From: Candidatus Blackallbacteria bacterium
GTDB taxonomy: Bacteria; Cyanobacteriota; Sericytochromatia; UBA7694
DNA length: 64,000 nucleotides
Assembly: GCA_051715345.1 (NCBI GenBank)
Contig: JBPXJQ010000003.1
Span: 1,261-65,260, forward strand
Reading direction: 5' to 3'
Under the pieces are notes generated by a model. It saw nothing but the letters and a program-made list of their open reading frames with translations, was not told the origin of the DNA and ran no database searches. Positions 21,036 to 53,797 of this stretch are shown here, piece after piece (position 1 is the first letter of the stretch; each line of letters starts with the position of its first letter). A program made the position numbers and the translations under genes.

Positions 21036-21575
21036 ATGACCATGACACAGCGTGAGTCCGACCTCAAACAGGCCCTGTTACAACTGCGCCCGGGCATGAT
21101 CCGCCAGGTAACGATCCGGACGGGCTCACGCGATCTGGCCGAAGAGGTGGTACAAGTGGCCTTGCTCAAAGCCCTTGAAGGGTTGGACCGCTTAAAAGAT
21201 CCTCGCCGCCTGAAAAGTTGGTTTGGCACGATTGTGCAACACAGCCTGCAAGACGAATTCCGACAGTGGTCGCGACAGGCCCCTTTAGAGCAGGCCGAAA
21301 GTCTGCCCGATTTACAGGCTGAAGAAAAAGCCGAGCCACCGCTGAGCTGTGGCTGCGTCTTGAAATTATTGCCCACTCTGCGACCGGCTTACGCTCAATT
21401 ATTGGAAGCGGTGGATCTGCGCGGCGACTCGCTGCAGAAATTGGCCCAAAACTGGGGGCTGAGCCCCAACAATCTGTCGGTGCGCTTGCACCGTGCCCGC
21501 CAGGCCCTGCGCAAAAAATTGGGTCAGCGCTGTGGCACACACTCTGTGGCCGCTTGCCTGGAATGCGGCTGTTAA
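21036..21575 (+). CDS. ECF sigma factor with C-terminal Cys-rich extension (CorE-like)
   Basis: 179 aa. Sigma-2 and sigma-4 regions (DLAEEVVQVALLKALEGL; LSPNNLSVRLHRARQALRKKL). A CxC (SCGCV) sits between the regions, and the C-terminal tail is QRCGTHSVAACLECGC. No anti-sigma gene is adjacent. Confidence 0.75.
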   Translation: MTMTQRESDLKQALLQLRPGMIRQVTIRTGSRDLAEEVVQVALLKALEGLDRLKDPRRLKSWFGTIVQHSLQDEFRQWSRQAPLEQAESLPDLQAEEKAEPPLSCGCVLKLLPTLRPAYAQLLEAVDLRGDSLQKLAQNWGLSPNNLSVRLHRARQALRKKLGQRCGTHSVAACLECGC

Positions 21576-21682: not shown

Positions 21683-22870
21683 ATGAGTCCCGGATTGACA
21701 TTTGAAAAAGAGATCTCGTTGCGTGGCGACAATAAAACCTATAAAAAGGTGGCCCTCAATCTCAAACGCAATCAGCAGCAGGACAATACCGATGCCTTGG
21801 ACTCACTGGCAGAGACTTTTAATTACAGTGAGTGTGCCCACGAATACTGGAACCCCGAAGAATTCTCGCTGCTCTACGGCACGCCGCTCTGGGATCAGGC
21901 CACCCAAGCCCAACGTGTGCTGCTCAACCAACTCTATTGGATTGGCTATTATTCCCAGATCATCTCTGCTGAAATTGCCACGATCTTTTTGAACCAGACT
22001 GCTGCAGCCGGCCTCTATGGCATGGAAGACTTTCGCATTGTCTGCGACTCACTCGACTTTGAATCCCACCAAGAGCGGGCACATATCAACGCCTTTAAGA
22101 CGATCTCCGAAGCCACCGAGCGTGAAGTCTTTGGTGAGCGGATTTTCAGTTACCCGATGAAAAATTTCGCCAGCGAGACCATGATTTTCCAAGACACAAA
22201 TCCCTTTCGCGAGCGCTGGAAAAAATTTCAATTGCACTTTTTCGCCTTTCTCTCTTCTTCAAATGCCTTTATTGCCAGTCAATACCTCACAGTGCGGGGC
22301 ATGCGCACCCTGAATGGTAAAATAGTCCAGCATCAGCTCAGCCAGTATTACGAAAAACATGCAGATCAGGCCAACGCGCCGATACCAGCCAAGATCAGCT
22401 ACCATCACTTTTTGGATGAGTCCTATCACTTCAACAATTCCACCCTGATTGGTCATGAAGTGGTCAAAAGCCTCAAGCCCCCCACCCCGTTTGAGAAAAA
22501 GATCGTCAATATGTCGATCTGGGGCTGCCAAAAAGATCACTTTAATTTTAATTGCTCAGTCAATGGCATCTTCTGGTACGAACCCGCGATTTTTGGCACG
22601 ATCTACAAGGTGCTGCGCAGCCGGGCCTTTGGCTTTGAACACCAGGCCGCCCTGGATATGATTGATAAGTGCTTTTGCCAGGAAAACGAAGGCGTGAATC
22701 TGGCTTACAAGACCCACAAAGTGGCCCGGGAGTCCTATGAACAATACCTGAGTGATCTGGACTTCCTCAGCCCCGAAAACAAAAGCGTGAAATTGATGAA
22801 GCAGTCCAGCATTGAGCATTATCTGCAAACCAATCGCCGGGCCTTCCAAAGCTTTAAACCGGCCGCCTAA
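21683..22870 (+). CDS. AurF-like ferritin-fold diiron oxygenase
   Basis: 395 aa. Two E-x-x-H motifs in helical context (ESHQERAHINAF and LDESYHFNNS). The overall resemblance to the p-aminobenzoate N-oxygenase (AurF) family was judged by eye. Confidence 0.6.
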   Translation: MSPGLTFEKEISLRGDNKTYKKVALNLKRNQQQDNTDALDSLAETFNYSECAHEYWNPEEFSLLYGTPLWDQATQAQRVLLNQLYWIGYYSQIISAEIATIFLNQTAAAGLYGMEDFRIVCDSLDFESHQERAHINAFKTISEATEREVFGERIFSYPMKNFASETMIFQDTNPFRERWKKFQLHFFAFLSSSNAFIASQYLTVRGMRTLNGKIVQHQLSQYYEKHADQANAPIPAKISYHHFLDESYHFNNSTLIGHEVVKSLKPPTPFEKKIVNMSIWGCQKDHFNFNCSVNGIFWYEPAIFGTIYKVLRSRAFGFEHQAALDMIDKCFCQENEGVNLAYKTHKVARESYEQYLSDLDFLSPENKSVKLMKQSSIEHYLQTNRRAFQSFKPAA

Positions 22871-22907
22871 CAAAGAGCCACTGAGAAAAATAGGCGAAAC
22901 AAACACG

Positions 22908-23198
22908 ATGCAACGGCACCGGCTGGAATTTTCGAATGGCACAGCGATTGACGTCAACGCGGGAGAGAAGCTCTCGGAGTCGCTTGATGTCACCAACTCG
23001 CCGATCTTATTTGGCTGTCGCACAGGTATTTGCGCCACCTGTTTGGTGCAGGTATTGGCAGGCATGGAAAACCTCTCGCCCCTGAGCGAAGACGAAGAAG
23101 AGGTGCTTGAGATCTACGCCGAGGACCGCCCCAATTGCCGATTGTCCTGCCAACTCAGGCTCTCAGGCCCTGCCAAACTGGCGTATATCGGAAAATAA
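22908..23198 (+). CDS. Plant-type 2Fe-2S ferredoxin
   Basis: 96 aa from ATG 22908. C-x4-C-x2-C (CRTGICATC) plus a distal Cys (NCRLSCQL). Confidence 0.8.
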   Translation: MQRHRLEFSNGTAIDVNAGEKLSESLDVTNSPILFGCRTGICATCLVQVLAGMENLSPLSEDEEEVLEIYAEDRPNCRLSCQLRLSGPAKLAYIGK

Positions 23199-23209
23199 GA
23201 GGCCGTTTT

Positions 23210-24334
23210 ATGCACGCTCCCGAAAAAATGATTCCCGAACAGCTTGAGCTCGGCGCTCAGGGCGAGCAGCAGTTGCCCATGCAGGCGCCCATGCAGGCCC
23301 CCACCCAACCCGTCTCGTTTAAACACTATTGGTATATTGCCTGCCAGACCCATGAACTCAAAGCCAACCAAGCGATACAGCGCACGGTGATGGATGAATG
23401 GATTGCCTTATTTCGGGACGAAAATGGCCAGCCTGTTGCTTTACAGGATCGCTGTCCGCACCGCAATTTTAAACTCTCCCAGGGCTATGTCAAAGACGGC
23501 CTCTTGCAATGCCCGTATCATGGCTGGGTCTTTGATAAAACAGCCCAGGTTGTGGCCATTCCCTCTGAGAGCAAAAATTTTAAACCGCTCAAATCCCGCT
23601 GTGCCAAACGTTTTGAGGTCATGGAGATCGATGATTTTATCTTTGTGCGCCTCGAAAGCCACCCCGAACTCCAGGCCCCGCCCTTTCGCTCCCCCCATTA
23701 TGGCGAAAAGGGCTACCGCACGGAACGCCTGTTTAATATCTTTAAAAACAATGTCACCAATTGTGCCGAAAACTATGTCGATGTGCCGCACACGGTCTTT
23801 GTCCACGACAAGATCTTTCGCGTCAGCCGCGATGAAAAAGTCGACGCCACTGTCGAGCGTAAAAACGGCAGCGTGATTGTCGATTACCGCAATGAAACCG
23901 ACAATATGGGCTGGTTCTCGCTCTTTCTCAACCCCAAAAAAGAAAAAATAGTCCACCGCGACTTTTTCCATGTTCCCAATATCACCAGCGTGGAGTATAT
24001 TTTTTCGCCCGGCAAAGAATTTTATATCACCTCCCACAGCACGCCAGTGAATGACCAATTGACCTATGTTTACACCGATTTGACCTACCGCTTTGGCATC
24101 TTTAATCCCTTTGCAGGCCCGATTGTGCGCTATCAAGGCCAAAGCGTGATCGACCAAGACATTGTCGTTTTAGACACCCAAATGGAAGTCATTCAAAAAT
24201 ACGGCGAGCGCTTCTCCAATGCCACTGCGGATATTGTGCATGTGATGATCGAATCTCTGCGCAACGCCATTGCCAAAGGCCAGAATCCCCACACCCTGAG
24301 CGAGCAAAAACACGATTTTGAATTTTGGATCTAG
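23210..24334 (+). CDS. Rieske 2Fe-2S non-heme-iron oxygenase (PaO/Tic55-like)
   Basis: Rieske motif CPHRNFKLSQGYVKDGLLQCPYH. Mononuclear iron motif ENYVDVPHTVFVH (E-N-x2-D-x2-H-x4-H). ATG 23210 lies 11 nt after the ferredoxin stop. Confidence 0.85.
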   Translation: MHAPEKMIPEQLELGAQGEQQLPMQAPMQAPTQPVSFKHYWYIACQTHELKANQAIQRTVMDEWIALFRDENGQPVALQDRCPHRNFKLSQGYVKDGLLQCPYHGWVFDKTAQVVAIPSESKNFKPLKSRCAKRFEVMEIDDFIFVRLESHPELQAPPFRSPHYGEKGYRTERLFNIFKNNVTNCAENYVDVPHTVFVHDKIFRVSRDEKVDATVERKNGSVIVDYRNETDNMGWFSLFLNPKKEKIVHRDFFHVPNITSVEYIFSPGKEFYITSHSTPVNDQLTYVYTDLTYRFGIFNPFAGPIVRYQGQSVIDQDIVVLDTQMEVIQKYGERFSNATADIVHVMIESLRNAIAKGQNPHTLSEQKHDFEFWI

Positions 24335-24337
24335 ACC

Positions 24338-25078
24338 ATGCTTGAACTGCTGGTCTTTTGGCTGCTCTTTGTCTGGTTGCTGCGCTCGCCCCAGGCCCGC
24401 CAGGACTTAAAAAACAAAACGCCTTTTGAGTGGCTGCTCGACGGCAGCAATTTATTGATCCAGGGCTTTTTAATTCCTTTTTTGCGGGTGGCTGTCCTTT
24501 GGGTGCTGCTCAAACAGGTTTGGCCCGCTGGCCAGGGCCTCTGGCGCATGGGCAATGGGCTGGGATTTTTGCTCTGTTTTATCGGCGTGGACTATCTCTA
24601 TTATTGGAACCACCGCATTTTTCACCTGCGTAAGATCTTTCCCGTACACCTGATTCACCACAGCGTAACCCGTATGGACGTGATGGCGACCTCGCGCAAC
24701 ACCCTTTGGACCAGCTTTGTGATCGTCTATCTCTGGGTCAATGGCCTGATGCTCTACCTGACAGATCTCAATGCTGGGTTTATACTGGCCATGAGCCTGA
24801 CCGCCTGTTTGGACATGTGGAAACATTCCAACCTGCTCCAAGAACGCCCCCAATGGCAAGCCCTGCTGTCTAAATATCTGGGTTTAATGACGCCCCTGGA
24901 ACACGCTTGGCACCACTCCCACAAACTGAATCAAAACTTCGGCGCCAATTTTAACCTCTTTGATAAATTACACGGCACCTATACCGCCGAAAGCGCTTAT
25001 CCCGAGCGCCTGGGCGTGAGTGTGGCCAAGCTCAAACCCTGGCAACAATTGTTCTTTCCCTTTCAGGCCCGCCCATGA
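24338..25078 (+). CDS. Fatty-acid hydroxylase / sterol desaturase superfamily membrane di-iron enzyme
   Basis: His boxes HRIFH, HLIHH and HAWHHSH in a polytopic membrane protein. The start is 3 nt after the Rieske stop. Confidence 0.8.
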   Translation: MLELLVFWLLFVWLLRSPQARQDLKNKTPFEWLLDGSNLLIQGFLIPFLRVAVLWVLLKQVWPAGQGLWRMGNGLGFLLCFIGVDYLYYWNHRIFHLRKIFPVHLIHHSVTRMDVMATSRNTLWTSFVIVYLWVNGLMLYLTDLNAGFILAMSLTACLDMWKHSNLLQERPQWQALLSKYLGLMTPLEHAWHHSHKLNQNFGANFNLFDKLHGTYTAESAYPERLGVSVAKLKPWQQLFFPFQARP

Positions 25079-25761
25079 CCTTGCTCTCGACCCTGCTCTC
25101 CTTTTTTCCGCTTTCGGTGCTGCTGCTGGCGGGTGGGGCTTTTTATTACCTGCTTGTATCTCCGAGTTGGCAGGGAATCGTGGCCCTGCTCGGGGTGCTC
25201 TATCTTTACCCTGTGGCGGTCTTTCGTCTGATCAACCTCTTTTGGCCGCTCAAAGAAGGGCGCTATGACCTGCGCCAAAACAAATACAATCCCTGGTGGG
25301 GCAGCCACCAAATCCAATTGATCTACTTTGCCTGCCCCTGGCTGGAGGCCTTGCTGCGCCTGATTCCTGGCGTTTACAGTTTTTGGCTGCGGCTCTGGGG
25401 CGCAAAAATTGGCAAAGGCATTTACTGGACTCCGAACGTGCAAATTGATGACCGGCCGCTGACAGACATCGGCAGCGGCGTGATTATTGGGCACAAATTG
25501 CATTTTATCAGCCACGTGATTCTGCCCTACAAAGACAAATTGCCGCTGTACGTCAAACGCATCAGTGTGGGGGATCATTGCTTTTTGGGGGCGGGCTCTC
25601 GGCTGGGACCCGGCGTGGTGGTCGAAAACAGCACCTGCCTACCGATTCTGACCGAAGGAAAAATCAACCAACACTTTGCAACGGGCAATTATATTACGGG
25701 CCCAAACACAGCCCAAAACACAGTCCAAAACACAGGCAAAAACACGGAAAATCCGGCGTGA
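25075..25761 (+). CDS. Membrane protein with left-handed beta-helix (hexapeptide) domain, resembling the C-terminal TM/LbH modules of Pls-type synthetases
   Basis: Two N-terminal TM helices. WLRLWGAKIGKGIYW, then hexapeptide-like IGSGVIIGHKLHF and ISVGDHCFLGAGSRLGPGVVVENS. ATGA overlap with the upstream gene. Confidence 0.6.
   Translation: MTLLSTLLSFFPLSVLLLAGGAFYYLLVSPSWQGIVALLGVLYLYPVAVFRLINLFWPLKEGRYDLRQNKYNPWWGSHQIQLIYFACPWLEALLRLIPGVYSFWLRLWGAKIGKGIYWTPNVQIDDRPLTDIGSGVIIGHKLHFISHVILPYKDKLPLYVKRISVGDHCFLGAGSRLGPGVVVENSTCLPILTEGKINQHFATGNYITGPNTAQNTVQNTGKNTENPA
25700..25747 (+). repeat. Four tandem copies of a roughly 12-nt unit (CCAAAACACAG-like) at the 3' end of the LbH gene
   Basis: cccaaacacag / cccaaaacacag / tccaaaacacag / gcaaaaacacgg. 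It encodes PNTA-QNTV-QNTG-KNTE. Confidence 0.8.
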
Positions 25762-27299
25762 GAGGCTTGCTTTTAAAGGCCTTTCGGCTGGCCACAGCAC
25801 CTATTTGGAAACGTTTTGAGGCCGATTTACACCAGCCCTTGAAAGCCCAAATGCGTACCCTGAGTGCCATTCTCAAATTGGCCAACACAGCCGGAATAGA
25901 GACCTACGCAGATTTTCAGCAACTCCCTTTGCGCAGCTACGAAGAGTTCGAAGCCCAGATCTTAAAGGCCGAACAAACAGGGCACAACTTTCTCAGCCGT
26001 GAAAAACCCAAGACCCACGAACCGACCAGTGGCTCCAGTGGCGCCCGCAAATTGATACCCTATACCCCGGCGCTCTTAAACGGGTTTACCCAACTCTTTT
26101 TACTCTGGGCCCACGATCTGCTCAGCCACGGGCCACACCTCAAGGGCGGACGCCTCTACTTTAGTGTCTCGCCCCAGTTTCACGAAACCAAGCACGGCCT
26201 CAATGACGACAGTGATTACCTGACAGGCCTAACAGGTCAGCTGTTTAAAGCCTTTGTGCTGGTGCCCCCCCAAATCAAAAAGCTGAAAAACCCCGATGAT
26301 TTTTTTTATGTGCTGGCGCGTTATTGGCTGGGAGCTGACGATCTGGAAGTGATCTCGATTTGGTCGCCCAGTTTTATGCTGGCCATCTTGGACTATATTC
26401 AAAGCCATGCTTCAGCCCTGATCGCCTCGGGCCAGACAGGCCAAATTCAGATCGCAGGCCAGAGCTTTACACCGGGTGCAATTTCGGCCGCTAAACAGGC
26501 CGAATTACAAAAGCCCCAGCCCAATTGGCAAAAACTCTTTCCGGGCCTCAAGCTGATCTCTGCTTGGGGGGCCCAGAATTCAGCCACGGGGTTTCAGCAA
26601 TTAAAGACCCTGTTCCCAGATGTACATCTGCAAGAAAAAGGCCTGCTCGCCACCGAAGCCCCTTTGAGTTTCCCCTCTGAGCGCCACCAGGCCTTTTTGC
26701 CGCTTTTAAACGAAGTTTTCTTTGAATTCCTCGATGCCGAAGGCCAATTATGGCAACTGGATCAGGTGGCTGTTGGCGAGAGCTATGAATTGCTGATCAG
26801 CCAAAAATCGGGGCTGCTGCGTTACCGGCTCAAAGACCGTGTCAGAATTGAGAAAAAGGTCTTCAACACCCCCTGTTTTCAGTTTATCGGCAGGGGTGAA
26901 AATCTCTGCGATCTTGTCGGCGAAAAGCTCAACGAGACCTTTGTGGCAGAGCTGGCCAAGCAGCTCTGCCCGGGCAATTATCTCTGCCTTGTGCCCGATT
27001 TGGCCACACGGGGGTATACCCTTTTTTCGGAGCAAACCGTAGATTTGGAGCGCTTTGAACAGGGCCTAAGACAATCGCCCCATTACCACAATGCCCGCGA
27101 ACTCAAGCAATTATCGCCGCTGCAGGGGCAAATCACCCCAGATCTGCAAACCCGGCTCAAGGCCTTTTTTAGCCAAGTCAGAGGTCTGAAGCTGGGAGAT
27201 ATCAAAGACAGCTATCTTTACAGCCGCGAAACCAACGGGGAACTCTTGGCCTATTTAATTTTGGCAGTTTTAAGCCCCGTGGTCGTTTCAGAGACTTAA
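25758..27299 (+). CDS. GH3-family acyl-acid amido synthetase (adenylate-forming)
   Basis: GTG 25758 overlaps the upstream TGA (GTGA). It is the only plausible start, because the next in-frame ATG would truncate the conserved N-terminus. Adenylation motif EPTSGSSGARKLIPYT. About 510-aa length and overall pattern typical of bacterial GH3 proteins. Confidence 0.7.
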   Translation: MRGLLLKAFRLATAPIWKRFEADLHQPLKAQMRTLSAILKLANTAGIETYADFQQLPLRSYEEFEAQILKAEQTGHNFLSREKPKTHEPTSGSSGARKLIPYTPALLNGFTQLFLLWAHDLLSHGPHLKGGRLYFSVSPQFHETKHGLNDDSDYLTGLTGQLFKAFVLVPPQIKKLKNPDDFFYVLARYWLGADDLEVISIWSPSFMLAILDYIQSHASALIASGQTGQIQIAGQSFTPGAISAAKQAELQKPQPNWQKLFPGLKLISAWGAQNSATGFQQLKTLFPDVHLQEKGLLATEAPLSFPSERHQAFLPLLNEVFFEFLDAEGQLWQLDQVAVGESYELLISQKSGLLRYRLKDRVRIEKKVFNTPCFQFIGRGENLCDLVGEKLNETFVAELAKQLCPGNYLCLVPDLATRGYTLFSEQTVDLERFEQGLRQSPHYHNARELKQLSPLQGQITPDLQTRLKAFFSQVRGLKLGDIKDSYLYSRETNGELLAYLILAVLSPVVVSET

Positions 27300-45387: not shown

Positions 45388-45472
45388 CTTGGCGAACAAG
45401 CCCAAGCCCAAAATCAGCTATAATACCCCTAAGTGCCAATTTTTTGCTGGCCACGCTGCCAAGGGGAATTCC

Positions 45473-46615
45473 ATGTCATCACTTACCGAAACCCGCATCT
45501 TTAACCAACCCGACACGGTGGTTGAGTCCTGGTATTGGGCGTTTAAATCTTCAGATCTCAAAAAAGGGCAAATCAAACCCCTCAATTTCCTGGGCCAGGA
45601 ACTGGCCGTCTACAGAGGCGAAGATGGCGTGGTCAGAGCCGTCGAAGCCTATTGCCCACATATGGGTGCCCATCTGGCCGAAGGAAAAGTCGACGGCAAA
45701 GGCGTGCGCTGCTTTTTTCATGCCTGGAAATTCGACGAAAGCGGCGAATTGGTGGACATTCCCTGCCGCAAATCCCCCGGCATTCAAGAAAAGATCAAAC
45801 TCTTCCCGGTCTGTGAACAATACGGCGTAATCTGGATTTATACCGGCGAGACCCCCAGCCACCCCGTGCACTTTGTGCCCGAACTCGAAGGTGTCGAAGT
45901 GGCCCATGCCTTTGGCAATCAATTTGTCAAAGAATGCCACCCCAATGTGGTGATGATCAACGCGATTGATGCCCACCACTTTACCTCTGTGCACCACCTG
46001 CCCGTGAACGTGCAGTTTGAAACCATCCCGCTCAGCCCGCATACGATCCAATTTAACAACACCACCCATATGCCCCAAAGCAAGTGGTACCTGCGCTTTT
46101 TTAGCAAATTTTATGCCGGCCCGCTGACCTATTCAATGGCATATACCGCTGGCAGCACAGGTTCTGTCACCGTTGGCCCAGATTTCTTGCACTGCCACAT
46201 CATCTTTGCCCTGCGCCCCAATGCCCAGGGCCACGCCGAAGGCCTGACCATTTTACTCACCCCCACGGGCGCTCACAAAAACAAATTGGGCTGGCTGAAT
46301 ATCTTTAATCCGATCATTCTCTTTGCCACCAAACTCGTGGGCAATTATTTCGCCGGCGGCGATACCGAGGTCTTTAAAACGATCAAGTTTAAATTCAACC
46401 GCCCAATCAAAGAGGATTCTTCGATTATCAAGTTCATGCAGCACCTGGAAAAACAAAAAACAGCCCGCTGGGGCTTTGGCAACAAAATGACGGGAGAAAC
46501 CCCACTGCCCCTGCATCAAGAGGCCCTGGACGCCCCCGCAGAGTCTCTGCTCGACAATATTATCGACATCAATACCCGCGAAGAAAACAAGCGCAGCCAG
46601 AAAGTGGCCCCATGA
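45473..46615 (+). CDS. Rieske 2Fe-2S non-heme-iron oxygenase (paralogue of 48338..49504)
   Basis: CPHMGAHLAEGKVDGKGVRCFFH Rieske motif. Mononuclear iron motif NAIDAHHFTSVH (D-x2-H-x4-H). ATG 45473 is preferred over TTG 45389. Confidence 0.85.
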   Translation: MSSLTETRIFNQPDTVVESWYWAFKSSDLKKGQIKPLNFLGQELAVYRGEDGVVRAVEAYCPHMGAHLAEGKVDGKGVRCFFHAWKFDESGELVDIPCRKSPGIQEKIKLFPVCEQYGVIWIYTGETPSHPVHFVPELEGVEVAHAFGNQFVKECHPNVVMINAIDAHHFTSVHHLPVNVQFETIPLSPHTIQFNNTTHMPQSKWYLRFFSKFYAGPLTYSMAYTAGSTGSVTVGPDFLHCHIIFALRPNAQGHAEGLTILLTPTGAHKNKLGWLNIFNPIILFATKLVGNYFAGGDTEVFKTIKFKFNRPIKEDSSIIKFMQHLEKQKTARWGFGNKMTGETPLPLHQEALDAPAESLLDNIIDINTREENKRSQKVAP

Positions 46616-47430
46616 AAAAACTCAAAGCCTTTGGCTACGCCGTCTCCGACTTAAGTACAGAGCAAATCGAAAGCATGTTTCAGCTCTTTGCTGAGTATTA
46701 TGCCAACGTGACCTACGAACAATTCCGCAAAGACCTGAGCCAAAAAGACCATGTCTTTGTGCTCAAAGACAAAGCCACCCTGGAGATCAAGGGCTTTTCC
46801 ACGATTGTGGCGTTGAACTCCACGGTCAATGGCAAACCCGTGCGCGGCTTCTTCAGCGGCGATACGGTCGTCGATCGCGAGTATTGGGGCCAGGGCACCT
46901 TGGGGGTGGCCTTTCTCAAATTTCTGTTTTTGCACAAATTGCGCAAACCCTTTGAACCGCTCTATTGGTTTTTGATCTCCAAAGGCTACAAGACCTATCT
47001 GCTGATGGCGAATAATTTTCAGACCCATTATCCGCGCTGTGAAAAACCCACCCCGCCTGAAATTCAGACCCTGATCAACACCTTCAGCACGACCCTCTAT
47101 GGCGATTGTTATTATGCCGATCGCGGGGTGATCAGTTTCGCGGGCCAGCAATCACATATCAAAGATGCGCTCAAAGAAGACATCACCCCGATCAGCGAAG
47201 ACCTGCTGAAAAACCCACGTGTGGCCTTCTTTGCAGAAAAAAACCCCCAGTGGGACCAGGGCGACGAATTGGCCTGTGTGGCTCTGATGACCTTCAGCAT
47301 GCCCTTTTATTACCAACTCAAAACCTTTAAAAAGCTGGCCCAGCGCGCCTTCAGCGGCAAAAAAGCCCGCAGCGAAAAACCCCGCAATACGGGATCGCTC
47401 GACCCGGCCCAGGAAGGCGCAAGGCCTTGA
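46612..47430 (+). CDS. GNAT-like acyl/acetyltransferase
   Basis: 272 aa with an ATGA overlap to the upstream Rieske gene. REYWGQGTLG resembles GNAT motif A (R/Q-x-x-G-x-G/A). The family call is tentative. Confidence 0.55.
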   Translation: MKKLKAFGYAVSDLSTEQIESMFQLFAEYYANVTYEQFRKDLSQKDHVFVLKDKATLEIKGFSTIVALNSTVNGKPVRGFFSGDTVVDREYWGQGTLGVAFLKFLFLHKLRKPFEPLYWFLISKGYKTYLLMANNFQTHYPRCEKPTPPEIQTLINTFSTTLYGDCYYADRGVISFAGQQSHIKDALKEDITPISEDLLKNPRVAFFAEKNPQWDQGDELACVALMTFSMPFYYQLKTFKKLAQRAFSGKKARSEKPRNTGSLDPAQEGARP

Positions 47431-47435
47431 ATGAC

Positions 47436-48320
47436 ATGCTTTTTAGCGCCACCCTTGAAAATTCGCTGAGCAAAACCCACGTCCCCAGCAACCGCGAAGT
47501 CGAACAAATTCTGACCCGCAAACTCTCACACATCGCCCCGGAGCCAAATTTTGCAGGTCTTTGGGATCTCAACGATCACCGTTTGGGCCACGTATCGCAG
47601 GTTCTTTCTGCCTCACAAGACACCCGCCAAGCGATTTTGACTGACTTGGCCCAGGGCCGCTTTCGTGAGGCCTACGGGATCGAAAAAGCGGGCATGAGCT
47701 TTGCCGCCAAAATGAGTTTGCTGGCCCAGAGCCTCAACGAACAAAAGCTCTATTCGCTCTTTGCCTCGGAAGAGGCGGCCCATTTTCACTTTATTCAAGC
47801 GGTCTTGGGTGATCCCCCCGATCTGTCAAAAGACCCGTTTATTCAGTTTTTAAATGAGCTGATCATCTCTGCCGAGCGCCGCCCGCTGCTGTTTATTATC
47901 CAGGTCGTGCTTGAAGGCTGGGGTCTCGACCATTATGCAGGCATGCTCAAAAGCTGCAAACAGGCCAGCTTTAAAGGGCCCTTGCAGCAGATTCTCAGCG
48001 ACGAAGCCGCCCACCATGGCAGCGGCCTCTCACTCTTTCAAGAAGACGAATTGAGTCAGTCTGAACTCAAATACACCTTGGAGATGATAAGTGCCTTCTT
48101 GGACATGGTGCGGATCGGCCCTGTCGGCCTGATGCAGACCCTCGACAGCCATCTCGGTGGCTTAACCACAGCACAAAAGCAAGCGGTGCTGACAGAGATG
48201 GACGCCGTTGAAGACACCACGCGCAAATTGAATCTGCTCAAAGGGCTGATGCAAAAGGCCCAGGCCAAGCGGATTCTGGCTGAGTTAGAGGCGAAATCGG
48301 CCTTCGCGCTGCTGTTTTAG
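47436..48320 (+). CDS. Ferritin-like diiron (ExxH x2) oxygenase-like protein
   Basis: Two E-x-x-H motifs in helical context (SEEAAHFHF and SDEAAHHGS) with upstream acidic residues. The start is either ATG 47436 or TTG 47427, which overlaps the upstream stop. Confidence 0.6.
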   Translation: MLFSATLENSLSKTHVPSNREVEQILTRKLSHIAPEPNFAGLWDLNDHRLGHVSQVLSASQDTRQAILTDLAQGRFREAYGIEKAGMSFAAKMSLLAQSLNEQKLYSLFASEEAAHFHFIQAVLGDPPDLSKDPFIQFLNELIISAERRPLLFIIQVVLEGWGLDHYAGMLKSCKQASFKGPLQQILSDEAAHHGSGLSLFQEDELSQSELKYTLEMISAFLDMVRIGPVGLMQTLDSHLGGLTTAQKQAVLTEMDAVEDTTRKLNLLKGLMQKAQAKRILAELEAKSAFALLF

Positions 48321-48337
48321 GCCAACATCACTAGAAG

Positions 48338-49504
48338 CTAATTCTCGCTCTCAACCACGGGCACAGGCCGCTCTGCCGCCATCGGCAAAGCCGTTTGGTC
48401 CCCATTGCCCGGCGCAGGTGCATAACTCTGGCTCCAGGGCGAGGCCTTGAGGCGGTTGATATACCTTAAATATTTGGCCACAGGCGCATCCATGCCCAAT
48501 AAATTGCGGGTATTAAAGCGGATATTTTCGTAGATCTGGCCATCTTCGCCCTGCAAGGAGAAAAAGGCCCGCTTGGTAAAAAACAGGCAGAGCCAAGTGG
48601 CAATCGCCCCACGCAGGCCCTCGCGCTTTTTCGTGACATAAATCGGCTGAACCAGCGTTTGGCCGGGGGCCACCATTTGGTAGGCAAAGAACATATACAA
48701 TTCGGGCAAAAGGCCCGCTTTGCCAAAGAAACTCACATCCCGCATCAGGGTCAAAGCCGCCAGACAGCCATCGGCATAGGTCATCGAATAGCAATAATTG
48801 GGCCCCAAGACCTTGCGCACGAGCTTTTCAGCAAAGGTCGTGTTGGGCGTTTGGCCCCGCAATTCGATGGTGATCACCCGGTCGTTGTCTTCGATCTGCA
48901 CATCCATGTCCATGTGGATATTGTGAACGGTGCGCAGGTGCTGGGGATCTATGCCGTTGATCATCGTGATGTGGAAATGGCATTTGCGCGTATACATTTT
49001 GCCATGCTGAAAGCTCACTTCTTGGCCTTCGAGGGCGGGAATCTCCAGCACATGGCTGGGGGTGTTGGGGTCGGGGTGCACCCAGACAAAGCCATATTTT
49101 TCTTCGCAGGCATAGGTCTGCAAACAGGCGGTTTTGGGAATCTCTTTTTGGATCGGGATATGTTGGCAGCGGCCATCGCTGCCGTATTCCCAGTGGTGAA
49201 AAAAGCAGCGCACGCGGTCGTTGACCACTTTGCCAATGCCAAGATCGACGCCCATGTGGGGGCAAAAGCCGTCCATGGCATGCACTTCGCCTTTGGAATT
49301 GCGGAAGACGCAGATTCTCTGACCGGCCAGATCCCGCGTCAGAACCTGGTTGAGCCCCAACTCCGAGGCGGCACAGAGAATATACCAGCCCTCGGTGACA
49401 ATCTCCCAATTGTTGAAGATTTTGTGCCGGGCCTGGGGCTGGGTATGGATATTCTGGTGTTCGGTGCGCCGTTCTGGTCGCCGCTGATGGGGTGTTTGGT
49501 TCAT
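48338..49504 (-). CDS. Rieske 2Fe-2S non-heme-iron oxygenase (paralogue of 45473..46615)
   Basis: CPHMGVDLGIGKVVNDRVRCFFH. Iron motif NGIDPQHLRTVH. Convergent with the diiron gene (17-nt gap). Confidence 0.85.
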   Translation of the reverse strand: MNQTPHQRRPERRTEHQNIHTQPQARHKIFNNWEIVTEGWYILCAASELGLNQVLTRDLAGQRICVFRNSKGEVHAMDGFCPHMGVDLGIGKVVNDRVRCFFHHWEYGSDGRCQHIPIQKEIPKTACLQTYACEEKYGFVWVHPDPNTPSHVLEIPALEGQEVSFQHGKMYTRKCHFHITMINGIDPQHLRTVHNIHMDMDVQIEDNDRVITIELRGQTPNTTFAEKLVRKVLGPNYCYSMTYADGCLAALTLMRDVSFFGKAGLLPELYMFFAYQMVAPGQTLVQPIYVTKKREGLRGAIATWLCLFFTKRAFFSLQGEDGQIYENIRFNTRNLLGMDAPVAKYLRYINRLKASPWSQSYAPAPGNGDQTALPMAAERPVPVVESEN

Positions 49505-49597
49505 ATTTGGTTGATGGTGTTTTCCTGGCTACATTATAGCCTGTTGGCAGCGGCCACCTGCGTGATTTTCTGGAGAGCCCGCCAAAAATCCGCTAAA

Positions 49598-50146
49598 ATG
49601 ATACAAACAGGATTGCGAGGTATCGTAAAGATGCTGATGGATAAAAAAACAATGGGCACCGCCGAAGTGATCGGTGGCATGGGGTTGCTGCTGCTGGGTC
49701 ACAAACTCAAAGGATTGGGCATGTTTGCCCATGGTTTTACGGCCCTCGAAGAACTCTACCGCGAAGCCCATCCCGAGCTCAAACCCGGCTTGCAGGCCCG
49801 CTGGGAAAAAGCCACTGAATTTTACGAAGCCAACCATCAGAACGAAACCAACCGCACCTTGCACCGCCTGGGCATCCCGTTGATTGTCGGTGGCGCTTTG
49901 GGCCTTTTGGTCAGCAAACCCCACCGCCTGCCGTGGATGGTCTCTGCTGCGGCCTTTGCGGGCGGCTGGGCCTCAAATATTATTGGCCACAGCGTCTACG
50001 AGAAAAATGCCCCGGCTTTTACCGAAGATCCGCTTTCGTTTATTGCCGGGCCTGTTTGGGACATTCAACAGATGATGGCCCTTTCAAACGCCCAACAAAA
50101 AGGCCGCATCGAAGAGCGGGTCACCGTGGAAGTTGAAAATGCCTGA
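49598..50146 (+). CDS. DUF962 / Mpo1-like membrane protein (family of Fe(II)-dependent 2-hydroxy fatty acid dioxygenase)
   Basis: Only the 3' third of the 495-aa ORF-track entry is taken as real. Motifs NHQNETNRTLHRLGIPLIV and IGHSVYEKNAPAFTEDPLSFIAGPVWD. The start could also be ATG 49631. Confidence 0.6.
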   Translation: MIQTGLRGIVKMLMDKKTMGTAEVIGGMGLLLLGHKLKGLGMFAHGFTALEELYREAHPELKPGLQARWEKATEFYEANHQNETNRTLHRLGIPLIVGGALGLLVSKPHRLPWMVSAAAFAGGWASNIIGHSVYEKNAPAFTEDPLSFIAGPVWDIQQMMALSNAQQKGRIEERVTVEVENA

Positions 50147-50654
50147 GCAAGTGCCCAAGCAAGTGCCCAAGCAAGTGCCGGATCAAGTGCCGGATCAAGT
50201 GCATAAGCAAGTGCCCTCGGTCCACAAAGACAACCCCTTCTTTCAAGCGCGGGTCGAAAACTCCCGCACCCGCGTGGTCAAAATTGTCTTTCCCAAAGAC
50301 ACCAATAACTTCGATACCCTGTTTGGGGGCACGGCCCTGCAGTGGATGGATGAAGTGGCAGCCATTGCCTCGATGCGTTTCTCGCGCCAACAGACTGTGA
50401 CCATTTCGCTGGATGCCATCACGTTTAAAAAAGCCATTCCCTCCGCCAATTTTGTCGAATTGGTGGCAGAGGTCGTGGAGGTGGGGCGCACCAGCATGAA
50501 AATCCAGGTCGATGTCTATCTCGAACCCATGGACCAGGATATTCGCATCAAAGCGATCCACGGCTGTTTTACCTTTGTGGCGATCAATGCCGAGCGGCAG
50601 CCGATCGCAATAGAATGGGACAAACCTTTACCAGAGGCAATAAGACATGAGTAG
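50139..50654 (+). CDS. Hotdog-fold acyl-CoA thioesterase (YciA/ACOT-like) with a QVPx repeat N-terminus
   Basis: VVKIVFPKDTNNFDTLFGGTALQWMDEVAAIASMRF, VTISLDAITFKKAIP and GRTSMKIQVDVY. ATG 50139 overlaps the upstream stop (ATGCCTGA). Confidence 0.75.
   Translation: MPEQVPKQVPKQVPDQVPDQVHKQVPSVHKDNPFFQARVENSRTRVVKIVFPKDTNNFDTLFGGTALQWMDEVAAIASMRFSRQQTVTISLDAITFKKAIPSANFVELVAEVVEVGRTSMKIQVDVYLEPMDQDIRIKAIHGCFTFVAINAERQPIAIEWDKPLPEAIRHE
50148..50219 (+). repeat. Six tandem 12-nt units (CAAGTGCCNNNN) encoding QVPK-QVPK-QVPD-QVPD-QVHK-QVPS
   Basis: Read directly from the sequence: caagtgcccaag x2, caagtgccggat x2, caagtgcataag, caagtgccctcg. Confidence 0.9.
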
Positions 50655-52761
50655 CATTCAAGAGGGCATTCAAGCCAAAAAAATCTCCGAAATTCGGCAT
50701 TTAATGAATACGGGCAACCTCCCCGAGGCCTTTTTGCGCTGCCAGAAGTTTGTGGATAAATACCCTCAAATCCACACAGGTTGGTACCTGATGGGGCTGG
50801 TGGCCGAACAACAGGGCGACCTGCACGCCGCCGAGGTGGCCTGGGAAACGACCTTGCTGGTCAAACCCGAAGATGCCTTGACCCATTTTAAACTGGGTAT
50901 GTTGCTGCAGAGCCAAGGGCCCACCGATCGCTCACTCAAACACCTGCAGGCCGCACGGGCCTTTGCCCCTGAAGAATCTGTGTATACCCGTACCCTGGCC
51001 CGTGTGCACATGATGTTGGGCAATAACGAGGACCTGATACTCTATGCCCGCGCCCTGTTGGAGCAAAATCCCAAAGACGGGGACGCCTTCTTTTTGCTGG
51101 GCGCGGGACTCCATCTTTCAGGCAAATACGCCGATGCCGAACTGGCCCTCAAACAGGCCAGCGAATACGACCCCAGCCACGTCTCAGCTTCGTTTCAATT
51201 GGGTTTGGTGCAGCTGGAGCGCCAAGAGCTGTCTGAGGCTGTCAGCAGCTTTGAAAGAACCCTGCAAGTCAGCCAAGGACAAGGGGTACAGGCCTCTTGG
51301 CTGGCCCGCGTTTGGGCCCTGCTGGGCCGGGCTTACCAGCTTCAGGGCCAAGTCGGCCCCGCCGCAGAAGCCTGGCAATCGGCCCTCAAACTCTGGCCCG
51401 ACGGCCTGGCCTGTACCGGCCTCTCACTGCAATTGCCCGCTGTCTACCAAAAAGCCGAAGACATCCCAACCTGGCGCAAAAACTTTATCACAGGGATCGA
51501 AACCCTCGAAGCCAAAGCCCGCGAGATCAGCACCCCGCTGGGTGAACACCTGCTGCCGCCCTTCGACCTGAGCCTGATGGGCCAAGCAGATTTGGCACTT
51601 AAACAGCGCGTGGGCAGCTTTTACCAAAGTTATTTAAGCGACAAAACAGAGCCCACAGGCAGCCAGAAAAACAGCCTAACGGTGGTCTGGCTCGGTATCA
51701 GCGCCCTCTGGGAACCGGCCCTGATGGCGCTGGTCAAAGCCCTCAATCCGCTCTTGCCAGTGACGGTTTTAACCAGCGAAGCGAATCTGGCCGAACGTCT
51801 GCTCAAAGCGGGTCTAACCGTTCAGCCCGTGCCTTATTTGCGCGAAAATATTAAACAGGCCTTGCTCTACAGCAAACCCGATCACCTGCTCTATCTCGAT
51901 CTGCGCAACCCGCTGGCGTATAGCTTGGCCTTGGAAAAACTCGCGCCGGTTCAGAGCGTGCTCTGTTTGCAGCCCGAGAGTTCGGGTTTAAACACCCTTG
52001 ATTATTTTTTCTCAGCGGCCGCCCTTGAACCGGCCCAGGCCGAAGCACAGTACAGCGAAACCCTGGTCAAGCTCAAAAACTGGCCGATTCTACCCTCGCT
52101 GCCTGCTCTGCCCGCCTGGAAAAGCAAGCGCGATCTGCGTCTAACAGAGTTGGGTACCATTTATCTCTGCCCCGTTGAGAGCAATAAAATTCACCCTGAC
52201 TTTGACCCTGTCCTGCAGGCCATTCTCGAAAAAGACCGCAAGGCCTTCCTGTATTTTCTTTACCGCGAAGGGGACGTGGCCCATACCTATCTGCAGCAAC
52301 GGCTGCAAGAGCGTCTGGGGGCCCGTGCTGACAAAGCCAAATTTGTCAGTTGGGCCCATACCGAAGAATTGCTGCAGTATTTACACCGTGCCGATGTGGT
52401 GCTGGATACCCCCTATTCTGGCGGCCGCAGCCTGATCGGCTGGGCCATGGGCCTGGGTGTGCCCGTGATCAGCCTCGAAGGCCCTGCCCAACAGAGCCGC
52501 TGGGGCAGCAGTTTGAATAGAGCCCTGGGTCATCCTGAGTTCAATGCAGACAGCCTGGAAAAATACCCAGGCATCGCCTGTACACACGCCAGCGCGGGGC
52601 CCCAGCGTGTTATTCTGAAAGCGAGTCTGACAGAGCGCTATTCCCAGCTCTGGAACCCCAGTCAGGCCGCCCAAGAGATTGTGGCCTTTCTGAGCCCAAA
52701 ACCAGCAGATCAGAATGCGGCTGCCCCGACAGAGACCGACCAAGACGAAGAACAAGGATAA
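50647..52761 (+). CDS. TPR-repeat protein with C-terminal GT41 (SPINDLY/OGT-like) glycosyltransferase domain
   Basis: N-terminal TPRs over about 250 aa. C-terminal half with GT41-like blocks (LAPVQSVLCLQPESSGLNTLDYFFS, YSETLVKL, DVVLDTPYSGGRSLIGWAMGLGVPVISLEG). The start overlaps the thioesterase stop by 8 nt. Confidence 0.75.
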   Translation: MSSIQEGIQAKKISEIRHLMNTGNLPEAFLRCQKFVDKYPQIHTGWYLMGLVAEQQGDLHAAEVAWETTLLVKPEDALTHFKLGMLLQSQGPTDRSLKHLQAARAFAPEESVYTRTLARVHMMLGNNEDLILYARALLEQNPKDGDAFFLLGAGLHLSGKYADAELALKQASEYDPSHVSASFQLGLVQLERQELSEAVSSFERTLQVSQGQGVQASWLARVWALLGRAYQLQGQVGPAAEAWQSALKLWPDGLACTGLSLQLPAVYQKAEDIPTWRKNFITGIETLEAKAREISTPLGEHLLPPFDLSLMGQADLALKQRVGSFYQSYLSDKTEPTGSQKNSLTVVWLGISALWEPALMALVKALNPLLPVTVLTSEANLAERLLKAGLTVQPVPYLRENIKQALLYSKPDHLLYLDLRNPLAYSLALEKLAPVQSVLCLQPESSGLNTLDYFFSAAALEPAQAEAQYSETLVKLKNWPILPSLPALPAWKSKRDLRLTELGTIYLCPVESNKIHPDFDPVLQAILEKDRKAFLYFLYREGDVAHTYLQQRLQERLGARADKAKFVSWAHTEELLQYLHRADVVLDTPYSGGRSLIGWAMGLGVPVISLEGPAQQSRWGSSLNRALGHPEFNADSLEKYPGIACTHASAGPQRVILKASLTERYSQLWNPSQAAQEIVAFLSPKPADQNAAAPTETDQDEEQG

Positions 52762-52765
52762 AGAC

Positions 52766-53797
52766 ATGTCTGAATTGGATCCCAAGATCAAAGAGGCCCA
52801 AGAAGCCCTGAGCCAAGGCAAAAGCGCCGAAACAACCCAGATTTGTGAAGCCTTACTCGCCAGCGACCCCAACAACGCCGAAGCGTGGCATCTCTTGGGA
52901 CTGGTCGCTTACCAGGTCCAAGATTTTAAAACCGCTGAAGAGAAAATCCGCAAAGCGATTGAATTCAAAGCCCAGCCCCATTTTTACAATAATTTGGGCA
53001 ATGTGCTCAGCGACCAGAATCAGAATGACAAGGCCCGCGAAATGTACCAAAGTGCCGTGCGGCTCAATCCGAGCTTCTCGGGGGGTTACAATAATTTGGG
53101 CAATATCTCGCGCAAAATGGGCAAAGTCGAAGAGGCCGTATTTAATTACCAAAAAGCCCTCAAAGCCGATCCCAGCCAACCCGATGCGTATATCAACCTC
53201 GGCAATTTGTTCTTTGATATGGGCCGTTACCCCCAGTCGATCGACAATTATAAAAAGGCCCTGGCGATCAATCCCACCATGGTGCAGGCCCTGAATAATT
53301 TGGGCAGCCTTTACCACCACCAGGGCTTAGGCGAAGAAGCCAGTCAATATTACGCAAAGGCCCTCGAAGCCAATCCCGACTTTATTCCCGCCCTGTTTAA
53401 TCTGGCCCATCTCAAACGCGAACAGGGCTTTATCGACGAAGCCCTCGCTCTCTACCAGAGATGCATCGACAACAATGCCAATATGTTGGATGCCTATTTG
53501 AATATGTCACGGATTTACCAATTCCAAGGCCAGCCCGATGAGACCGCTCGCTGTTTAAACAAGGTACTGGAACTCAACCCCCAGATTGCCGAAGCAGAAA
53601 ATGGCCTGGCTCTGATTGCGCTGGAGCGCGGCGATAAACAGACGGCCCTGAAACACTTCCACCGCGCCTTTGATATCGAGCCGCAGAACCCCGATGTCTG
53701 TTATAACATGGGCTCGTTGCTGCGCGAATTGGGCCAATTGGAAGCGGCTTCGCACTTTTTGAATATGGCCCTGCAATTGCAGGATGCACACGCTTAG
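52766..53797 (+). CDS. TPR-repeat protein
   Basis: 343 aa from ATG 52766 (AAGGA lies 8 nt upstream). About nine canonical TPRs (for example AWHLLGLVAYQVQDFKTAEEKIRKAIEF and YNNLGNISRKMGKVEEAVFNYQKALKADP). Confidence 0.85.
   Translation: MSELDPKIKEAQEALSQGKSAETTQICEALLASDPNNAEAWHLLGLVAYQVQDFKTAEEKIRKAIEFKAQPHFYNNLGNVLSDQNQNDKAREMYQSAVRLNPSFSGGYNNLGNISRKMGKVEEAVFNYQKALKADPSQPDAYINLGNLFFDMGRYPQSIDNYKKALAINPTMVQALNNLGSLYHHQGLGEEASQYYAKALEANPDFIPALFNLAHLKREQGFIDEALALYQRCIDNNANMLDAYLNMSRIYQFQGQPDETARCLNKVLELNPQIAEAENGLALIALERGDKQTALKHFHRAFDIEPQNPDVCYNMGSLLRELGQLEAASHFLNMALQLQDAHA

Follow-up and report, generated by a model that had tools for sequence, protein, structure and literature searches.

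A Rieske, GNAT-like and diiron gene set in a Sericytochromatia bacterium is one half of a conserved oxygenase and acyltransferase cluster split in two

The stretch of DNA analysed here, called the window below, comprises 64,000 nucleotides of contig JBPXJQ010000003.1 (assembly GCA_051715345.1) from Candidatus Blackallbacteria bacterium, a member of the Sericytochromatia. The genes in question lie at 45473-53797 and open with a Rieske oxygenase, a GNAT-like protein and a ferritin-like diiron protein. Their layout was read from a map of open reading frames (ORFs) and directly from the junctions in the window, and the genes, coordinates, overlaps, gaps and iron motifs reported in a first-pass annotation of this DNA were all reproduced, with agreement from Pfam. 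It was found that the four genes of 45473-49504 and a second set at 21683-27299 complement each other as the two halves of a single conserved cluster, comprising about ten genes, and that this cluster matches a type already described in cyanobacteria. The first half consists of the following genes.

45473..46615, + strand: Rieske1, alpha3-type Rieske non-heme iron oxygenase of orthogroup 1 (Pfam Rieske, 86 bits)
46612..47430, + strand: GNAT-like gene (product GNATl, 272 aa), predicted GNAT-fold acyltransferase of an undescribed family
47427..48320, + strand: DiFe, predicted ferritin-like diiron-carboxylate protein of 297 aa (Pfam Ferritin_2, 28 bits)
48338..49504, - strand: Rieske2, second Rieske oxygenase, of orthogroup 2 (Pfam Rieske, 80 bits, with a weak KshA_C match)

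The ATG of Rieske1 (45473) is preceded by a Shine-Dalgarno-like GGGGA. A longer ORF beginning with TTG at 45389 is an unlikely start, since a promoter-like motif described below would then fall inside the ORF. The end of Rieske1 is joined to the start of the GNAT-like gene by an ATGA overlap, and DiFe may begin either at TTG 47427, with a 4-nt overlap with the GNAT-like gene, or at ATG 47436, after a 5-nt gap. Rieske2 converges on DiFe across a gap of 17 nt. In L002, a near-identical contig from a metagenome-assembled genome (MAG), a 5.6-kb insertion (L002 11798-17248) lies precisely at this convergent DiFe/Rieske2 junction. It encodes secreted or lipoprotein-like proteins with NHL-resembling repeats and a toxin-antitoxin pair that resembles AbiEi/AbiEii, and it looks like a strain-variable island.

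The second half of the cluster lies about 18 kb away (21.7-27.3 kb against 45.5-49.5 kb) and contains the following genes.

21683..22870, + strand: CylC-like diiron protein, first gene of this half (weak Pfam AurF match)
22905..23198, + strand: 2Fe-2S ferredoxin (NCBIfam ferredoxin matches)
23210..24334, + strand: Rieske3, whose C-terminal domain is VanA_C-like (Pfam Rieske, 88 bits; VanA_C)
24338..25078, + strand: FAH, membrane protein of the FA_hydroxylase/sterol-desaturase family (Pfam FA_hydroxylase, 79 bits)
25075..25761, + strand: hexapeptide-repeat acyltransferase (weak Pfam Hexapep match)
25578..27299 (mechanical ORF), + strand: GH3-like adenylating amido-synthetase (Pfam GH3, 90 bits; GH3_M, 57 bits)

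As the mechanical ORF of the GH3-like gene overlaps the hexapeptide gene by 184 nt, we infer that its real start lies near 25760. The GH3-like protein gave weak PDB matches to JAR1 and other GH3 enzymes; PDB sequence searches with the hexapeptide and CylC-like proteins returned nothing meaningful, and no NCBIfam model matched the CylC-like or GH3-like proteins. The CylC-like protein carries QERAH (130) and HFLDESYH (242), which correspond to the QExxH and HxxDExxH motifs of the CylC subfamily, and its orthologues in two related loci (L001 and L082) bear a precomputed PF28091 CylC-like assignment.

Species-representative genomes were scanned with an alignment of the GNATl family, which returned 80 loci. 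All window proteins were compared with these loci by tblastn, and accessory genes were collected by all-against-all clustering of the ORFs of the related loci. Thirty-six related loci carry at least 8 kb on both sides and are referred to as full-flank loci. The loci come from Bdellovibrionota, Myxococcota, Acidobacteriota, Gammaproteobacteria, Oligoflexia, Planctomycetota, Bacteroidota and Sericytochromatia, the last including the MAG contigs L002-L005, whose proteins are 98-99% identical to those of the window.

A Rieske gene stands directly upstream of the GNAT-like gene in 53 of 72 loci, and DiFe follows it at a distance of 1.4 kb or less in 50 of 62. This arrangement is far from chance, and Rieske-GNAT-diiron triplets are widespread in other genomes. 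Furthermore, in the majority of 77 related loci, which represent at least eight phyla, Rieske1-GNATl-DiFe-Rieske2 adjoins the genes of the 21.7-27.3 kb cassette, with the usual order Rieske1-GNATl-(SDR)-DiFe-CylC-like-(ferredoxin)-Rieske3-FAH-Hexapep-GH3-Rieske2 or near permutations of it. At least three of five genes of the cassette are present in 27 of the 36 full-flank loci; the hexapeptide transferase is kept in 30 of these and the GH3-like gene in 31. The CylC-like gene adjoins the DiFe or Rieske1 gene in most related loci, and the ferredoxin family, a likely electron donor, was found in 28 loci, where its gene lies between those for CylC-like and Rieske3.

The cluster is contiguous in Halobacteriovorax marinus SJ (L001) and also in L082, a Candidatus Blackallbacteria locus that is the nearest relative at class level. 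In the latter, GH3-Hexapep-FAH-Rieske3-ferredoxin-CylC-like lie on one strand and are followed by Rieske1-GNATl-DiFe and then by a convergent Rieske2, the layout seen in the window. A relative 84% identical to the window (L083) has the same split half. The first-pass annotation had read the genes at 45.5 kb as a further module built on the logic of the 21.7-27.3 kb cassette. Since the two are contiguous in most other genomes, they are one split cluster rather than two analogous modules, and a rearrangement in this Sericytochromatia lineage would have parted the halves by about 18 kb.

Genes for RlmD, the thioesterase, GT41, TPR and PAD proteins that neighbour the cluster in the window were found in none of the 36 full-flank loci. 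Conversely, several genes of the related loci are accessory. An SDR gene lies between GNATl and DiFe in 39 loci (for example L006 10783-11619) and was not found in the Sericytochromatia, Blackallbacteria or H. marinus versions; its NCBIfam matches are generic SDR models and include KdsR, a 3-ketodihydrosphingosine reductase, at 151 bits against a cut-off of 400. Other accessory genes encode small DUF962-type membrane proteins, an E2/CAT-like acyltransferase and an MMPL-like transporter.

Clusters of this make-up have been reported. Eusebio et al. 2021 (PMC8406957) described 36 cyanobacterial 'Rieske-containing BGCs' (biosynthetic gene clusters) encoding CylC homologues, and noted non-cyanobacterial relatives in the same sequence-similarity cluster; the Rieske-associated CylC homologues form a clade and a sequence-similarity network cluster of their own. 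In Calothrix brevissima NIES-22 the cluster is NIES22_66770-66890 (Table S4 of PMC8406957) and encodes DUF962, Rieske, hypothetical (sll0263), Rieske (sll0264), ferritin-like (sll0265), CylC-like (sll0266), ferredoxin (ssl2559), Rieske (sll1297), sterol desaturase (sll1510) and acyltransferase (sll1511) proteins. In Synechocystis, the set is dispersed (sll0263-0266, sll1849, sll1297, ssl2559, sll1510-1511; PMC8406957). As the 'hypothetical' protein agrees with GNATl in size and position, we infer that the two are the same.

The window cluster matches this type. Both comprise a CylC-like protein, a ferredoxin, three Rieske proteins, a ferritin-like diiron protein, the 'hypothetical' protein, a sterol desaturase or fatty-acid hydroxylase and an acyltransferase, with no carrier protein. 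The CylC homologue of the window is of the Rieske clade, three Rieske genes are present where the type has two to four, and FA_hydroxylase, Hexapep, Ferritin_2 and Fer2-type matches were obtained; no PP-binding or AMP-binding domain was detected in either half with Pfam or NCBIfam. Unlike a cluster of one contiguous locus, the window copy is split by about 18 kb, but the set is likewise dispersed in Synechocystis. It differs from the cyanobacterial clusters in that it lies in a genome of the Sericytochromatia, which are relatives of cyanobacteria without photosynthesis, and is flanked by a lineage-specific DUF962-thioesterase-GT41-TPR operon. It is thus a split, non-cyanobacterial member of an already described, functionally orphan type. 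In the literature, no product or functional study of the cluster was found, beyond the 2021 survey and two expression tables. According to the latter, the Synechocystis ssl2559-sll1297 transcription unit is induced 32-fold by phosphate starvation (PMC4195498), and sll0266, the CylC-like gene, is repressed under iron depletion (PMC3516471).

QExxH and HxxDExxH define a dimetal halogenase subfamily (PMC12101540), and the CylC-like protein of the window keeps both motifs of the dimetal-carboxylate halogenases CylC and NocO, which act on acyl chains bound to acyl carrier protein (ACP) in the cylindrocyclophane and nocuolin pathways. In contrast to those pathways, the window cluster encodes no ACP and no fatty acyl-AMP ligase (FAAL) as partner, and halogenation by its clade is putative.

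Divergent from Rieske2, on the opposite strand, begins a second group of genes that the first-pass annotation had joined to the locus. These genes, and a promoter-like motif that stands before them and before Rieske1, are as follows.

45410..45424, + strand: promoter-like motif AAAATCAGCTATAAT (-10-like TATAAT), 49 nt upstream of the Rieske1 ATG
49585..49599, + strand: second copy of the promoter-like motif, AAAATCCGCTAAAAT, an exact match upstream of the DUF962 operon
49631..50146, + strand: DUF962/Mpo1-like small membrane protein (Pfam PF06127, 62 bits; cut-off 24)
50139..50654 (from ATG 50139), + strand: hotdog (4HBT) thioesterase (Pfam 4HBT, 59 bits), with an 8-nt overlap with the DUF962 gene
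50647..52761, + strand: TPR-GT41-like protein (Pfam TPR families and Glyco_transf_41, 41 bits), with an 8-nt overlap with the thioesterase gene
52766..53797 (from ATG 52766), + strand: TPR protein, last gene of the operon (Pfam TPR_1, 201 bits), after a 4-nt gap

In-frame ATG codons of the DUF962 gene are found at 49598 (the longest form), 49631, 49637 and 49652, and we prefer 49631 because the promoter-like motif overlaps the ATG at 49598. Yeast Mpo1 is an Fe2+-dependent 2-hydroxy fatty acid dioxygenase of alpha-oxidation (PMC10398889). By sequence, the window protein belongs to the same Pfam Mpo1-like/DUF962 family; it differs in being bacterial, 171 aa long and paired with a hotdog thioesterase and TPR/GT41 genes, and its activity is a prediction. 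The thioesterase reached 50 bits with the YciA equivalog model NF007970 (cut-off 162), and the general 4HBT domain is the one model that it passes. At its 5' end, a 12-nt tandem repeat (50146-50216; 5.9 copies, 84% matches) encodes (K/D)QVP repeats. The orthologue in L083 has 150 aa, and the window protein 173 aa from a TTG-start ORF or 171 aa from the preferred ATG 50139; the repeat tract thus appears to vary in length, since the L083 orthologue is the shorter.

These four genes can be read together with the Rieske1 group as one functional unit over 45473-53797, thioesterase and TPR/GT41 glycosyltransferase genes included. Such a reading draws on the junctions, where two 8-nt overlaps and a 4-nt gap suggest translational coupling, on the promoter-like motif common to the DUF962 and Rieske1 operons, and on the recurrence of DUF962-family proteins in the cluster of other lineages. 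Comparison with other genomes argues against it. The thioesterase, GT41 and TPR genes stand beside the cluster in L002, L004, L005 and L083, and neither tblastn nor family clustering detected them in related clusters beyond about 84% identity. The contiguous Blackallbacteria cluster (L082) lacks the DUF962-to-TPR unit. In L084, from another Sericytochromatia MAG, a DUF962-4HBT-TPR-TPR unit is found by itself, with rplM and rpsI as neighbours and without Rieske genes in the vicinity. More distant homologues of the window DUF962 protein, examined by homologue search and context look-ups, lie in unrelated contexts. We therefore regard the single unit as doubtful: the DUF962-thioesterase-GT41-TPR genes form a separate, independently conserved Sericytochromatia operon outside the conserved core, and the placing of thioesterase and glycosyltransferase within the locus did not hold.

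The place of DUF962 itself is ambiguous. Of 77 related clusters, 26 contain embedded proteins of the DUF962 family, as does the Calothrix cluster; all 19 aligned members match PF06127 (best 4e-11) and share three invariant His and one invariant Asp. That the window protein is the same as these embedded proteins was considered and rejected. A profile comparison gave an E value of 0.0016 with a probability of 16%, and the profile of the embedded proteins found no match in the six frames of the window, so that the window protein belongs to a different subfamily.

The promoter-like motif supports a more limited connection. The 15-nt motif AAAATCNGCTAWAAT, which ends in the -10-like hexamer, has exactly two exact matches in the window, where about 0.001 are expected by chance as estimated from base composition. 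The copy before Rieske1 is kept at the same place in L002-L005 and L083, the copy before DUF962 in L002, L004, L005 and L083, and no other copy occurs in 1.27 Mb of related loci. The shared motif favours a local functional link between the Rieske1 and DUF962 operons. Because it is shared, conserved and otherwise absent, DUF962, perhaps with the thioesterase, is possibly a lineage-specific recruit, and the pair might then add acyl release and alpha-oxidation of a 2-hydroxyacyl chain. The GT41 and TPR genes are probably unrelated to the cluster.

The folds of two core proteins were examined on AlphaFold2 models compared by Foldseek. GNATl matched no Pfam or NCBIfam model (E <= 0.01), and a PDB sequence search returned no match. 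Its homologues number 3186 in a 90%-clustered database; among the matches listed, those bearing a name are called 'hypothetical', and the precomputed Pfam field was blank for all 120 of the homologues listed. The family comprises 2040 clusters at 50% identity in a representative library, and about 50 of its alignment columns are invariant, including YWGQG and YWxLISKGxKxYL. The GNATl model (predicted local distance difference test score, pLDDT, 88.6) resembled AAC(2')-Ia, Eis-like proteins and NatD with a probability of 1.0 and an E value of 7e-8 or weaker over about 140 residues; an extra C-terminal region of about 100 aa extends beyond the GNAT fold. On this model, GNATl is predicted to have the GNAT alpha/beta fold, and by sequence it appears close to no characterised subfamily. 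In the alignment, W92-G93 are invariant and Q94 near-invariant, and E/D-Y-W-G-Q-G would be an ExxGxG variant of the GNAT pyrophosphate-binding motif.

Natural fusions of the GNATl domain occur in the representative library (P0281, P0373, P0382, P0292, P0361, P0305, P0328) and may help to identify its substrate. They comprise three MMPL transporters, a protein with PAP2 and FA_desaturase domains, one with FA_desaturase only, a JmjC/cupin hydroxylase, and a protein with RnfD-like and FG-GAP/ASPIC portions.

For DiFe, the model was all-helical (pLDDT 92.9) and resembled AurF, aldehyde-deformylating oxygenase (ADO), the R2 subunit of ribonucleotide reductase (RNR), PaaA and VlmB. E86, E116xxH119, E163 and E193xxH196 are invariant among 24 diverse sequences, and DiFe is accordingly modelled as a putative ferritin-like four-helix bundle with an E/ExxH/E/ExxH ligand set. 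The GNAT-like and diiron folds claimed at first reading were thus supported by the models and by the invariant diiron ligands. Ferritin_2 is the only curated model that DiFe passes; the DUF455 model gave 25 bits on a DiFe orthologue (cut-off 34), no MiaE, AurF or other curated subfamily model of Pfam or NCBIfam matched, and a PDB sequence search returned nothing meaningful. DiFe thus also seems close to no characterised subfamily.

All three Rieske paralogues contain the Rieske motif CxH...CxxH and the mononuclear-iron motif N/D-x2-D-x2-H-x4-H. Rieske1 has CPH...CFFH and the iron motif NAIDAHHFTSVH, and the corresponding iron motifs are NGIDPQHLRTVH in Rieske2 and NYVDVPHTVFVH in Rieske3. Three orthogroups can be told apart among the Rieske proteins of these loci, and the iron motif differs from one to the next: orthogroup 1 occurs in 55 loci, orthogroup 2 in 29 loci (39 members, some of them in a Rie2b subclade) and orthogroup 3 in 30 loci. 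Judged by sequence, they would be ancient, functionally distinct paralogues and not recent duplicates.

A fatty-acyl, membrane-lipid or acyl-amide substrate is probably the best-supported class, in keeping with the lipid or acyl-amide theme put forward by the first-pass annotation. This assignment derives from the GNATl fusions, the variant clusters, the membrane FAH, the CylC-type enzyme and the DUF962 proteins. Among the variants, L063 has GNATl-Rieske-GH3-FA_desaturase, L081 has GH3 with three FA_desaturases around GNATl-Rieske, and in L054 the GNAT-like gene adjoins one for an Aas-like LPLAT-ACP-AMP-binding protein; some cluster loci have an MMPL-like neighbour. Characterised CylC-type relatives act on fatty acyl chains.

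The following course of events may be proposed. The substrate would be a fatty-acyl or membrane-lipid molecule without a carrier-protein tether. The GH3-like enzyme would adenylate a carboxylate and form an amide, the GNAT-like enzyme would carry out an N- or O-acylation dependent on acyl-coenzyme A (acyl-CoA), and the hexapeptide transferase would add a further acyl group. Six O2-dependent iron enzymes (three Rieske proteins, two soluble diiron proteins, one of them halogenase-type, and a membrane di-iron hydroxylase) would oxidise the molecule stepwise by hydroxylation, desaturation or halogenation, with electrons supplied by the cluster ferredoxin. To the explanation as a whole, namely a conserved cluster split in this lineage that oxidises a carrier-free acyl or lipid substrate, with the DUF962 operon as a separate unit, we give a probability of about 70%.

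Several points weigh against this explanation. The lipid assignment is guilt by association throughout. The cluster encodes no carrier protein, acyl-CoA ligase or lipid-backbone synthase, so that the substrate cannot be named. In GNATl, ExxGxG would stand where the canonical pyrophosphate-binding motif Q/RxxGxG/A is expected, and CoA dependence is therefore an assumption. The fold matches of DiFe are weak (E about 1e-2; query-normalised TM-scores of 0.33-0.53, target-normalised up to 0.59). The solitary four-gene unit of L084 must also be counted here. The region upstream of the CylC-like cassette was examined for a regulatory motif in common, but gave nothing beyond A-rich partial matches, and the idea was rejected; the split could mean that the two halves are now regulated separately.

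As to the product, we propose tentatively, and hold less likely than not, a membrane lipid of a class not yet described, N-acylated, polyoxygenated and perhaps transiently chlorinated, whose pathway would be common to cyanobacteria (with Synechocystis 6803 among them), Sericytochromatia, predatory Bdellovibrionota, Myxococcota, Acidobacteriota and others. The 32-fold induction of ssl2559-sll1297 by phosphate starvation hints at a phosphorus-free replacement lipid. A similar logic, in which a GNAT-fold enzyme and a second acyltransferase are combined with several O2-dependent hydroxylases, is found in the ornithine-lipid pathway (the GNAT-type N-acyltransferase OlsB, OlsA, and the hydroxylases OlsC/D/E). 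The window differs in that GNATl matches no GNAT, OlsB or other acyltransferase model, and in that OlsE, the best NCBIfam match of FAH, was reached with only 55 bits against a cut-off of 475. Rieske, diiron and GH3 components are not known to be part of the Ols pathway. A link to sphingolipids, prompted by the GNAT-like nature of bacterial ceramide synthase and by the KdsR-like SDR, FAH, Mpo1 and PAP2_3 fusions, is speculation. No serine palmitoyltransferase was found in any related locus, and NCBIfam yielded no match.

The same genes could instead make a secreted, halogenated, polyoxygenated natural product derived from a fatty acid, that is, a specialised metabolite and not a membrane lipid. 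The halogenase-subfamily QExxH and HxxDExxH of the CylC-like protein point this way, as do the listing of this architecture among BGCs by Eusebio et al. (PMC8406957), its sporadic distribution within phyla and the MMPL-type exporter that is sometimes adjacent or fused. However, no polyketide synthase, non-ribosomal peptide synthetase, FAAL or carrier protein is encoded. For a specialised metabolite it would also be unusual that one orthologous set is retained in at least eight phyla, with small predatory genomes (such as those of Halobacteriovorax, Bdellovibrio and Peredibacter) among the carriers, and the fusions of GNATl are to membrane desaturases and PAP2. We consider a specialised metabolite unlikely.

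The Rieske proteins taken by themselves might suggest a locus of aromatic or xenobiotic catabolism, in which, together with accessory enzymes, they would act as oxygenases that hydroxylate rings or remove O-methyl groups. The nearest solved structures to Rieske1 are SxtDIOX/SxtT, a phthalate dioxygenase and KshA, at E 1e-20 or weaker; phthalate, carbazole, dicamba and anthranilate oxygenases appear among the PDB and NCBIfam matches, and Rieske3 has the VanA_C-like domain. In domain architecture and iron motifs, the window proteins are as in the alpha3-type Rieske monooxygenases (SxtT/SxtDIOX, KshA, DdmC, phthalate dioxygenase), and no beta subunit is encoded in the cluster, as in those systems. 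However, the matches reach no further than the Rieske domain and the beginning of the catalytic domain (about residues 16-175 of Rieske1), and the NCBIfam Rieske models of characterised families gave 20-86 bits against cut-offs of 600-830 (the Rieske proteins themselves 65-86 bits, cut-offs of at least 600), which agrees with the view that these proteins stand outside the characterised aromatic-catabolism families. Unlike the domain architecture, the C-terminal substrate pockets are unrelated in sequence to those of the alpha3-type enzymes, and therefore the Rieske likeness names no substrate. Moreover, neither half encodes a beta subunit, dihydrodiol dehydrogenase, ring-cleavage dioxygenase or reductase, and the partner enzymes are of lipid type. 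An aromatic catabolic role is thus very improbable. A sterol link, for which weak SdmA and KshA_C matches and the FAH and SDR genes were considered, was rejected, the scores being far under cut-off; the cluster is also presumably carried by organisms that make no sterols, which counts against such a link.

That the locus serves RNA modification, with DiFe as a MiaE-like tRNA hydroxylase next to the methyltransferases RlmD and CmoB, is scarcely credible: some sources do call DiFe homologues 'MiaE', RlmD lies directly upstream of Rieske1 and a CmoB-like gene near the first cassette, but DiFe matches no MiaE model, only Ferritin_2 and DUF455 weakly, RlmD is adjacent in the closest relatives only and in 0 of the 36 full-flank loci, and the promoter-like motif sits between RlmD and Rieske1.

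Three further genes surround the CylC-like half in the window. A gene for an ECF-type sigma factor (Sigma70_r2 + r4_2; 21036-21575, + strand) lies directly upstream of it and could encode a dedicated regulator. A CmoB-like methyltransferase gene (18595-19563, + strand) is found further upstream, and by tblastn CmoB was not beside the cluster in the related loci listed. At the other end, a PAD_porph gene (27296-28621, - strand), for an agmatine or peptidyl-arginine deiminase-like protein, converges on the GH3-like gene.

Across genomes, the cluster holds up to seven O2-dependent iron enzymes together with three acyl- or amide-forming enzymes. The orthologous set is conserved across at least eight bacterial phyla, with a dispersed copy in the model organism Synechocystis 6803. 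To what was known of this cluster type, the present analysis adds that the two cassettes of the window are one unit, that the 'hypothetical' gene would encode an enzyme of GNAT fold, for which fusions to lipid desaturases and to MMPL transporters recur, and that the cluster extends broadly outside the cyanobacteria. The find is of value because the cluster is so broadly conserved, because its GNAT family is undescribed and because tractable organisms carry it. Synechocystis, Halobacteriovorax marinus SJ and Peredibacter are culturable and genetically accessible, which makes its function testable, and the cluster could yield carrier-protein-independent CylC-type enzymes for C-H functionalisation, of interest as biocatalysts.

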